Shown here in pieces: positions 18-31,973 of a stretch of 31,973 nt of DNA. The notes below the pieces were generated by a model, which was not told where the DNA came from, ran no database searches, and saw only the letters and a program-made list of their open reading frames with translations. The stretch's first letter is position 1; the number at the start of each line of letters is the position of its first letter. Origin of the DNA: a virus. Taxonomy: Duplodnaviria > Caudoviricetes. The position numbers were made by a program, and so were the translations under genes. Location of the stretch: IMG/VR virus record IMGVR_UViG_3300029179_000018, positions 1-31,973 of that record; one strand, 5' to 3'.

Positions 18-332
18 AAGCTGTTCAGTGATTCTTTTGTTTGGTTCCGCTCCAATTCCGGCACCCACCCACAATGAAACAATCTGCTTCTCGCCTTCAT
101 CTGGATGGATATAGGCAATGTTGCACATCATATGTCGGTCTTCTGTTGCCACGCGCATGATTATCGCAAACAAGTCTGTCAATACTCTCATGTTGTGCAT
201 ATTGGTAGCTTTCGGGTTTTGAAATGCCCACCAACCAAAAGTGATGGAGTTCTTTACCCGCCAAAAAAACGAGAGCATAACATTGTGCTTGTTCAATGCC
301 TGTTTATCGGTCTTTAAAGTTTCTGTTTTCAT
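18..332 (-). CDS. Hypothetical protein, 3'-truncated (MKTETLKTDKQALNKHNVMLSFFWRVKNS...)
   Basis: ATG at 332 and an open frame running into the adapter. Absent from the ORF track because it has no stop. Confidence 0.7.
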
Positions 333-401
333 AGTCAGTATTTTCAGTTAATGTAGTTCATCATTCTTGGCGGCACTAAACAAGCACCGTCCGTTGTATG
401 C
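275..401 (+). repeat. attC-like imperfect palindrome 1
   Basis: GCATAAC-att-GTGCTTGTTCAATGCC (275-300) pairs with GGCACTAAACAAGCAC-cgtcc-GTTGTATGC (372-401). Both internal mismatches become G.T pairs on the bottom strand. Confidence 0.7.
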
Positions 402-478
402 CATGTTTTGCCCCATCGAATACAGGGCAAGGCGCGGAGGCCAATACATTGCCCTGTACCTACCGCACTGCAAAAAAC

Positions 479-1044
479 GGCACACAACAAGGGGTTTAAA
501 ACATTGGCGCAAGTAGTGTGCATTTCAATCATGGTTCGGGGACAGAAATTTTAAAATTTAAACAAAAACCCACCGCGCTGAGGTTACATACTAAAAGGCA
601 TTTTCAAATATTTGTCATCATTAATTTTAACAGTAACAAACCCTTCAAAACTATCACCACTATCACCAACACTTCTCTGGTCAACCCATTCCCATTCTAT
701 TAATTCACTTGCCTCCTGTTTGTTACCATAAGGTTTTTTAACTATTTCAAATTCACCATGTATTTGTGATTCTTCAATCAACTCACACAATTCGGCATAC
801 CAATCTTCCCCCTTCTCCTGTTTTATTATTTCTAAAATAGGTGCATTGTGAACATCAATTCTTTTGTAATATTCTTCCATGCCTTTTGTGTATTCATCCA
901 TCATGCGGTTGAAATCATCTTGCTTTTGTTGTTCAGTTAAAATTGCCATCGCTTTTTTGTTTTTAATTTAAACCTTAATTCAGTACTTCTAATTTCATTC
1001 AGTGCTACTTATCGGCTACTGTTTAAACACCCGTCCGTTATGCA
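479..1044 (+). repeat. attC-like palindrome 2 with a gene in its loop
   Basis: Left arm GGCACACAAC-aa-GGGGTTTAAAACATTGGC (479-508); right arm GCTACTGTTTAAACACCC-gtcc-GTTATGCA (1015-1044). It shares CCGTCCGTT with element 1. Confidence 0.6.
584..949 (-). CDS. Hypothetical acidic phage protein (121 aa)
   Basis: Clean ATG ORF with AT-rich, protein-like composition. Confidence 0.8.
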   Translation of the reverse strand: MAILTEQQKQDDFNRMMDEYTKGMEEYYKRIDVHNAPILEIIKQEKGEDWYAELCELIEESQIHGEFEIVKKPYGNKQEASELIEWEWVDQRSVGDSGDSFEGFVTVKINDDKYLKMPFSM

Positions 1045-1082
1045 CAATTGGCAACGCTAACGAGGCAAAGCTGCCAGCGGAG

Positions 1083-1403
1083 CTACCCACGTGCTTTTTC
1101 TTTACACACCTTTTCTGCTCCATTATTATCCATACAAACACCATATAGGCAGTTGCATAAAACCTCGCGCACGTTTTGCCCATCCGCACTGTTGCCAACT
1201 GCCGCCCCCTTCGCACCGTACGACCCTTCGGCTTGCATAACAACAGGTTTATGCAATTGGGCTTGATGCTCAGTATATTCACGCAAAAGTTTTACAACCT
1301 CATCAAAAGTGAAGGTGTCTTTCACTTCGCAAACCATCTTATCAGGTGTTACAAAGTATTTTTTTCTTAAAAAATTTATCTCATCCATAGGTTTCTGTTT
1401 CAT
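1083..1403 (-). CDS. Hypothetical protein (MKQKPMDEINF...QLHKPVVMQ...)
   Basis: ATG at 1403 lies just after the upstream stop; the frame reads through the left arm of palindrome 3. Confidence 0.65.
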   Translation of the reverse strand: MKQKPMDEINFLRKKYFVTPDKMVCEVKDTFTFDEVVKLLREYTEHQAQLHKPVVMQAEGSYGAKGAAVGNSADGQNVREVLCNCLYGVCMDNNGAEKVCKEKARG

Positions 1404-1420
1404 ATTTCGCCCAACTGCAT
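1234..1420 (+). repeat. attC-like palindrome 3 (right arm truncated)
   Basis: TGCATAAC-aac-AGGTTTATGCAATTGGGC (1234-1262). GCCCAACTGCAT (1409-1420) is 11/12 complementary to 1251-1262 and then breaks off at the end of the upstream gene. Confidence 0.55.
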
Positions 1421-1422
1421 CA

Positions 1423-31956: not shown

Positions 31957-31973
31957 GATCGTGACTGGGAAAC
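31957..31973 (-). other. Random-amplification primer, library artefact
   Basis: GATCGTGACTGGGAAAC is the reverse complement of 1..17 and interrupts a holin-like ORF. Confidence 0.9.

Follow-up and report, generated by a model that had tools for sequence, protein, structure and literature searches.

Phages have been reported to carry clusters of attC sites without intI, among them Polaribacter phage P12002L, and in the accessible text of that report IntI1 recombined five of six phage attC sites, P12002L_attC1 having no verified recombinant (Qi 2023; PMC9892861). In integrons themselves, attC sites bear two or three extrahelical bases near L'', and top-strand cleavage by IntI at the second core is known (Nivina 2016). 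Integrons are almost unknown from Bacteroidetes according to the accessible parts of two surveys, in which recombinases near attC sites were not accepted as IntI when they lacked the IntI insertion (Cury 2016; Neron 2022). In gut Bacteroidales, the accessible text of Ross et al. (bioRxiv 10.1101/471110) describes rAID-1 as a chromosomal arrangement in which a XerD-like recombinase heads co-directional low-GC genes with immunity cargo, separated by integron-like intergenic repeats. For the Polaribacter phage Freya isolates, the main text of Bartlau 2021 uses neither “integron” nor “cassette” and takes the Freya enzyme to indicate a temperate lifestyle.

Here we describe an array at the end of a phage contig that is quite probably, as judged from sequence comparison, a worn three-cassette array of a mirror-image Bacteroidota integron-like system, in which an insertion-less Xer-like recombinase would cross over at AAC. 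The sequence-only reading that preceded this analysis knew of no description of such an arrangement in phages. That was too strong, as the phage attC clusters reported in the accessible text of Qi 2023 include one member of the site family to which the window belongs: P12002L_attC1 scores 22.8 bits (E = 1e-4) with the model of this family. Earlier publications cover phage attC-like sites as well as rAID-1, the recombinase lineage of hosts; in the openly readable literature we found no paper on the inverted system and no account of the inverted layout.

The phage contig and its three hairpin sites

The window is an entire linear viral contig of 31,973 nt, with an estimated completeness of about 90%. 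Its genes include those for a phage integrase, a DNA methyltransferase and a protein of primosomal type; its terminase has a Cellulophaga phage as best match, and the majority of matches are to Bacteroidota phages. The cassette array is the terminal part of a leftward early operon directed towards nucleotide 1. An identical 17-nt tag, presumably a random-amplification primer, stands at 1-17 and 31957-31973. The tag is an artefact, because the source contigs run beyond it, by 87 nt on the left and 1950 nt on the right, and its presence at both ends together with these extensions means that the array is cut at nucleotide 18; at least 2 kb of the genome lie unseen. Two sequencing runs, which may be the source, and no RNA run were listed as containing the sequence; the contigs of these two runs show no joints and no variants, and contigs of this kind cannot reveal rare circles. 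Against GenBank phages, blastn with positions 200-1500 gave two matches, both by chance, and an Rfam search of the array region gave none. A capsid query found no relative among five array-bearing records, so these five are not close kin of the window phage.

On the minus strand each unit consists of a hairpin head (AAC, spacer, arm, loop, arm, shorter spacer, GTT) and a body that extends to the next AAC. The three imperfect palindromes of the sequence-only reading were found where it had placed them, with the third truncated as it had said. Site E1 (272..402, minus strand) is intact, with AAC at 395-393, arms at 388-371 and 301-284, GTT at 281-279, spacers of 5 and 3 nt, and a start codon at 332 in the loop. 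Site E2 (479..1046, minus strand) is worn; its AAC lies at 1039-1037, its arms at 1031-1014 and 508-491 and its GTT at 488-486, with spacers of 6 and 3 nt and a loop of about 500 nt. In the host-family register of the signature scan, 16 of 18 arm positions pair in E1 and 13 of 18 in E2. Both E1 arm mismatches are G·T pairs on the minus strand, in agreement with the earlier claim for the bottom strand, and the arms pair without a bulge, leaving no extrahelical base. Site E3 (1232..1422, minus strand) has its GTT at 1241-1239, a right arm at 1261-1244 and a left-arm remnant at 1422-1410, with 12 of the 13 inner positions paired; its outer arm and AAC are replaced by the end of an upstream replication-region gene, and it is therefore considered truncated. 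Thus both the AAC inverse core and the GTT core are present in E1 and E2, and one only in E3. The G·T pair that is invariant in the site family occurs in all three (376/296 in E1, 1019/503 in E2, at 1415 in E3), and the family's paired position 21/128 is paired in E1 and E2 and lost in E3.

A scan of positions 18-1500 with the family signature gave two matches, whereas dinucleotide shuffles of the same stretch gave one match in 24 of 1000 cases and two in none, so that the pair of palindromes is not common by chance. Because two further 13/18 matches occur in the rest of the 32 kb, the pairing of E2 is marginal by itself and needs outside support; heads in four other phages (L009, L081, L116, L369) share 74-91% identity with its left half. 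A covariance model built from host sites only detects E1 with 31.7 bits (E = 6.8e-6), the next match reaching 9.9 bits, and does not detect E2, with its long loop, or the truncated E3. On these models, E1 is shown to belong to the same site family as host chromosomal array sites. Its length falls within the 57-141 bp range of attC, and the approximately 570 nt of E2 fall outside it; the 5/3 spacing of E1 is that of a minority class (19 of 243 sites).

The ends of the bodies are complementary to each other. As noted previously, positions 393-402 are complementary to 479-488 at nine of ten bases and 1037-1044 to 1234-1241 at eight of eight. For the seven bases flanking the 3-nt core, complementarity is 6/7 and 5/7 across the two bodies versus 2/7 and 3/7 with each site's own partner, and the same holds across the family (119 of 167 across the body versus 12 of 243 with the own partner). 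This part of the integron-like cassette signature is upheld, as are the exact indels at the core described below.

The genes lie on the strand opposite to that in classic integrons and partly within hairpin loops, as had been proposed, with starts at 332 and 1403 inside loops. The E1 gene (18..332, minus strand) starts in the loop, crosses the arm, reads the GTT core as an in-frame Val and runs off the contig; it has relatives in eight records (L001, L002, L415-L420) and no match in Pfam, PHROG or PADLOC. The E3 gene (1083..1403, minus strand; 106 aa) likewise starts in the loop and reads GTT as an in-frame Val, and a protein search of viral contigs returned no relative. The E3 body (1037..1241, minus strand) has complementary cores at both ends, and the same body start is seen in L004-L007. 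A gene of 121 aa (584..949, minus strand) lies entirely within the E2 loop and has a weak match to phrog_11125 (E = 0.0012); over 958-582 it is 86% identical in nucleotide sequence to a copy in the AT-rich phage L003 (L003:3984-4359), which has an internal stop, no visible site, and homology confined to the loop gene and its leader. Since the boundaries of this gene are not at cores, further routes are also at work. Searches of the cargo proteins against ESM Atlas and PADLOC gave nothing.

The E2 body (393..488, minus strand) is a 96-nt rod hairpin closed by both cores, with a predicted fold of -22.7 kcal/mol (z = -3.84; 0 of 200 shuffles). Its largest frame, a 54-aa TTG frame (512-348), is in frame with both cores, and the ATG frame of E2 does not keep phase with the core. 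Palindromic bodies also occur in L064, L071, L339 and L392 (about 29 nt), so that two hairpins can make up an entire cassette, which may bear on the origin of cassettes. A second recurring GC-rich inverted motif is present on the minus strand at 1188, 1082, 578, 467 and 439, within bodies and immediately behind the E2 loop gene. It is also found in L004, L005 and L007, and a rearrangement in L004 appears to end near it.

Breakpoints at the AAC and GTT cores

Differences between related phages fall at the AAC core. Among pairs compared there, 225 have a common head and different upstream sequence, 13 show the reverse and one shares both, with identity falling at the core. The near-identical phages L091 and L011 differ by a 648-nt indel joined within AAC, between flanks that are 100% and 99.9% identical. 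Seven of the ten isolates of Polaribacter phage Freya were compared: in Freya_1, _2, _5 and _9 all four junctions relative to Freya_10 overlap by AAC only, Freya_6 carries a different unit of about 470 nt at the same place, and the 902-nt shortfall of Freya_8, compared at its start, fits one unit. In the window, the homologue of the E3 body in L007 covers 1259-1037, and homology stops exactly at 1037. This is the break that the proposal of a crossover at G|TT had predicted for related phages, and the Freya and L091/L011 indels likewise join within the core. Across the Freya isolates (L422, L424-L430), the series of genome lengths from 44.0 to 48.9 kb is explained by cassette indels exactly at AAC, before the annotated integrase.

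At the second core, GTT, the hairpin heads and gene bodies of the window recur in swapped pairings, a pattern that the sequence-only reading did not notice. The E1 body begins at GTT behind differing sequences in five relatives, in frame in four of them. The arm in L415 is identical to the window E3 arm at 19 of 22 positions, the E3 body itself occurs behind arms identical at 16, 14 and 5 of 22, and the arm in L417 matches an arm on an unrelated body at 18 of 22. The stop codon in L415, L417 and L420 is the TAA of the distal core, and L002, L418 and L419 possess the body and lack the head. Exchange at the second core thus appears likely from these pairings. It is less firmly shown than at AAC, because breakpoints are blurred across the family, where 143 pairs share heads, 9 bodies and 5 both, with gradual decay of identity.

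Site family, recombinase and alternative readings

About 260 viral stretches contained a match to a 15-nt seed, whose matches in bacterial genomes were mostly due to chance. Within viral loci, 50 of 119 seed matches had a well-paired partner arm (pairing score of at least 9), 44 of these 50 at an offset of 3. A scan of offsets from -6 to +6 over 122 sites gave 51 at offset 3 and 22 at offset 4, and 224 of 243 phage sites show one of these two values. In Bacteroidales bacterium CF, the seed also found a chromosomal array that is headed by a 283-aa recombinase and has its genes on the opposite strand. Across 31 aligned host sites, pairing in the arm helix reaches 92.8%, a percentage inflated by the partial selection of sites with a pairing detector, and 16 of 18 pairs show compensatory changes; a T-A pair is present in 31 of 31 sites and the G·T pair in 30 of 31, and the fixed G·T is not inflated by this selection since the detector scores G·T below a Watson-Crick pair. 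The 18 paired columns include no extrahelical base, with a detector that favours ungapped stems. The host-only covariance model recovers 93 sites in 42 loci.

Phage body genes lie on the hairpin strand (47 of 52 and 159 of 167 in two counts) and host body genes on the other strand (31 of 40). With the wobble of hosts thus placed on the non-coding strand, a role for it in mRNA structure is unlikely. In phages, 108 of 243 heads have a start codon whose frame crosses GTT, with GTT in frame in 77 of the 108. A rule by which AAC would be read as an in-frame Asn was not general (11 of 19 and 8 of 16), and the E3 AAC is out of frame. A single cassette of phage polarity was seen within a Bacteroidales chromosome (L144:5886-6022), and a contig assigned by binning to Dehalococcoidales carries a phage-like array (L178).

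Of 121 Bacteroidota genomes, 40 encode a homologue of the host enzyme. At least two sites lie downstream in 10 of 35 host recombinase flanks, versus none of five for other tyrosine recombinases. Host and phage enzymes are Xer-like tyrosine recombinases without the IntI insertion: the host enzyme has 46 residues where VchIntIA has 88, and against the 265-bit cut-off of TIGR02249 it scores 167 bits and the phage enzymes (263-267 aa) 102-158 bits. A single host-recombinase query found nothing in viral contigs; a search with an alignment of phage enzymes was confirmed in 196 viral stretches. Among the best 80 of these 196, sites lie upstream of the recombinase in 55 of the 58 loci with at least 1.5 kb upstream, on the recombinase strand in 256 cases versus 7 on the other (22 versus 13 downstream), and an attI-like motif, variable to the left of AAC and conserved to its right, stands just before the recombinase start codon in 78 of the 80. 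In one Bacteroides genome (G136; L436, L439-L442), 11 near-identical copies of a tyrosine recombinase of about 304 aa were also seen; this is probably an insertion element.

The absence of an integron integrase from the window, noted by the sequence-only reading, holds for IntI and for the family recombinase, within a contig that is incomplete where such a gene would sit: the array is cut on the side on which relatives carry the recombinase, and no attI-like site is present in the window. The phage integrase of the window scores 26 bits with TIGR02249 (cut-off 265). Many relatives have the recombinase in cis, directly downstream of the array, and six other array-bearing records, including the complete P12002L and a complete phage of 30.5 kb, gave no recombinase in a search in which three positive controls matched. 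We think it likely, somewhat less so than the assignment of the array itself, that the recombinase is supplied in trans rather than in cis.

The unit inserted or excised would be a hairpin head with its gene body, through crossover inside AAC catalysed by a Xer-like tyrosine recombinase of about 265-290 aa without the IntI insertion. The substrate would be the folded minus strand, as the invariant G·T pair and its place on the non-coding strand in hosts suggest. New cassettes would enter at the left, which would make E1 the youngest and E3 the oldest; the decay from E1 to E3 fits such insertion, on three points only. Occasional crossover at the second core would swap heads and bodies in frame. 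The unseen part of the genome could supply the enzyme; the host or a co-infecting phage is the likelier source.

Other readings of the array differ in how well they account for these data. If the sites were canonical attC processed in trans by a host IntI, the shared AAC and GTT cores, the complementarity of cassette ends and the activity of IntI1 on the phage sites of Qi 2023 (accessible text) would follow, and IntI inserts cassettes at non-att genome sites according to the accessible part of Loot et al. (bioRxiv). Against this stand the lack of a verified IntI1 recombinant for P12002L_attC1, the member of the present family in the same text, the lack of an extrahelical base, spacers of 5-6 and 2-3 nt versus 5-6 nt on each arm, the absence of a match above the IntI cut-off in five of five Bacteroidota genomes, and arrays that adjoin a non-IntI enzyme; we regard this reading as improbable. 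The suggestion that the array was assembled by attC-type recombination therefore stands for the cassette signature and the crossover at G|TT and falls for the sites as integron attC served by IntI, given their spacer geometry, the missing extrahelical base and the family enzyme without insertion. A slightly poorer prospect still is that the hairpins act in mRNA, in translation coupling, termination or processing, and that modules shuffle by homologous recombination between repeats as with the PeSL of T4. As this would predict, the G·T pair of phages lies on the strand of the mRNA and start codons occur in loops; identity decays gradually after the second core, and PeSL recombination shuffles modules and yields mini-circles (Arbiol 2010, accessible text; PMC2839356). 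It is opposed by the wobble on the non-coding strand in host arrays, by Freya junctions with 3 nt only in common, by the Rfam result, and by counts of promoter-like (3 versus 4.5 expected) and terminator-like (1 versus 3.0) motifs from a sigma-70 scan that is unsuited to Bacteroidota promoters. A secondary RNA role of the hairpins may exist.

Compatible with the integron-like reading, and of the same origin, is a relic array in which E2 and E3 have lost the ability to recombine and the enzyme is out of reach. The missing AAC of E3, the 13/18 pairing of E2 across a 500-nt loop with its ATG frame off the core phase, the complete array-bearing phages without enzyme and the uniformity of the two sequencing runs all point this way, yet E1 is intact, the complementarity of body ends has been kept (6/7 and 5/7) and the L091 and L011 arrays still differ by an exact indel, so that we give the relic state a little less than an even chance. 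Chance palindromes would explain why whole-region folding energy is unremarkable (z = -1.1 for E1, +1.3 for E2), a measure that was not informative. With no shuffle of the 1000 giving two matches, an independent model detecting E1 at E = 6.8e-6 and homologues breaking at the cores, chance is exceedingly improbable; at the level of sequence it is refuted for E1, and E2 and E3 rest on homology.

Comparison with described systems

A broader proposal, which we put forward tentatively, is that Bacteroidota phages may run their own mirror-image integron with an insertion-less recombinase, in which one core of each hairpin adds or drops whole cassettes and the other swaps protein N-termini (heads) against C-termini (bodies) in frame. 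If true, this would be a natural device for site-specific protein shuffling and gene capture, with the E1 and E3 halves of the window among the shuffled parts. The presence of the IntI insertion is taken to identify an enzyme that acts on folded single-strand sites, and integron logic without it would test the need for this domain. In the mirrored layout each phage cassette brings its own start codon and can join an operon in frame, and the layout bears on the origin of cassettes. Cultured phages (Freya, Ingeline) and their hosts show natural cassette variants, which makes the mechanism testable now. Most of these arrays seem to escape standard integron searches.

The accessible text of Qi 2023 on phage attC clusters makes no mention of genes on the hairpin strand or of starts in loops, unlike the family found here, and gives two sites in P12002L where about ten were found in the present analysis. 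The IntI1-active attC2 of P12002L (L008; 29170-29240 and about 37200-37260) is a repeated segment at the array end, of the other polarity and outside the window hairpin family.

rAID-1 elements are defined in the accessible text of Ross et al. by a recombinase more than 44% identical to BF9343_RS08045; none is present in the window, and the comparison was made through Bacteroides homologues (368-372 aa), which share 41-42% identity with the enzymes of hosts and phages. Enzyme matches occurred in 6 of the 41 genomes searched, some of the gut Bacteroides homologues heading low-GC clusters. The host-built model had no match in five gut Bacteroides loci, where repeats of about 50 nt run from TAAC to ATT rather than GTT (L443-L446); these repeats form a second site class of the same enzyme lineage. 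The T4-type PeSL, as described in the accessible text of Arbiol et al. 2010, resemble the present sites as repeated stem-loops that bound small swappable early genes. They differ in being promoters and terminators, whereas the window family has AAC and GTT cores, 3-nt junctions and a dedicated recombinase.

With integrons the system shares a recombinase, an adjacent insertion site, a cassette array, crossover at AAC and complementary cassette ends. It differs in an enzyme without the IntI insertion, in sites with an invariant G·T pair and no extrahelical base, in the asymmetry of the spacers relative to those of attC, in loops of up to about 600 nt that contain genes, and in the inverted polarity of phage genes: the gene of an attC cassette lies on the top strand, upstream of attC, whereas the window genes lie on the hairpin strand. 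Departing from attC in three defining features and in the IntI test, the system works like an integron and is not a member of that class.
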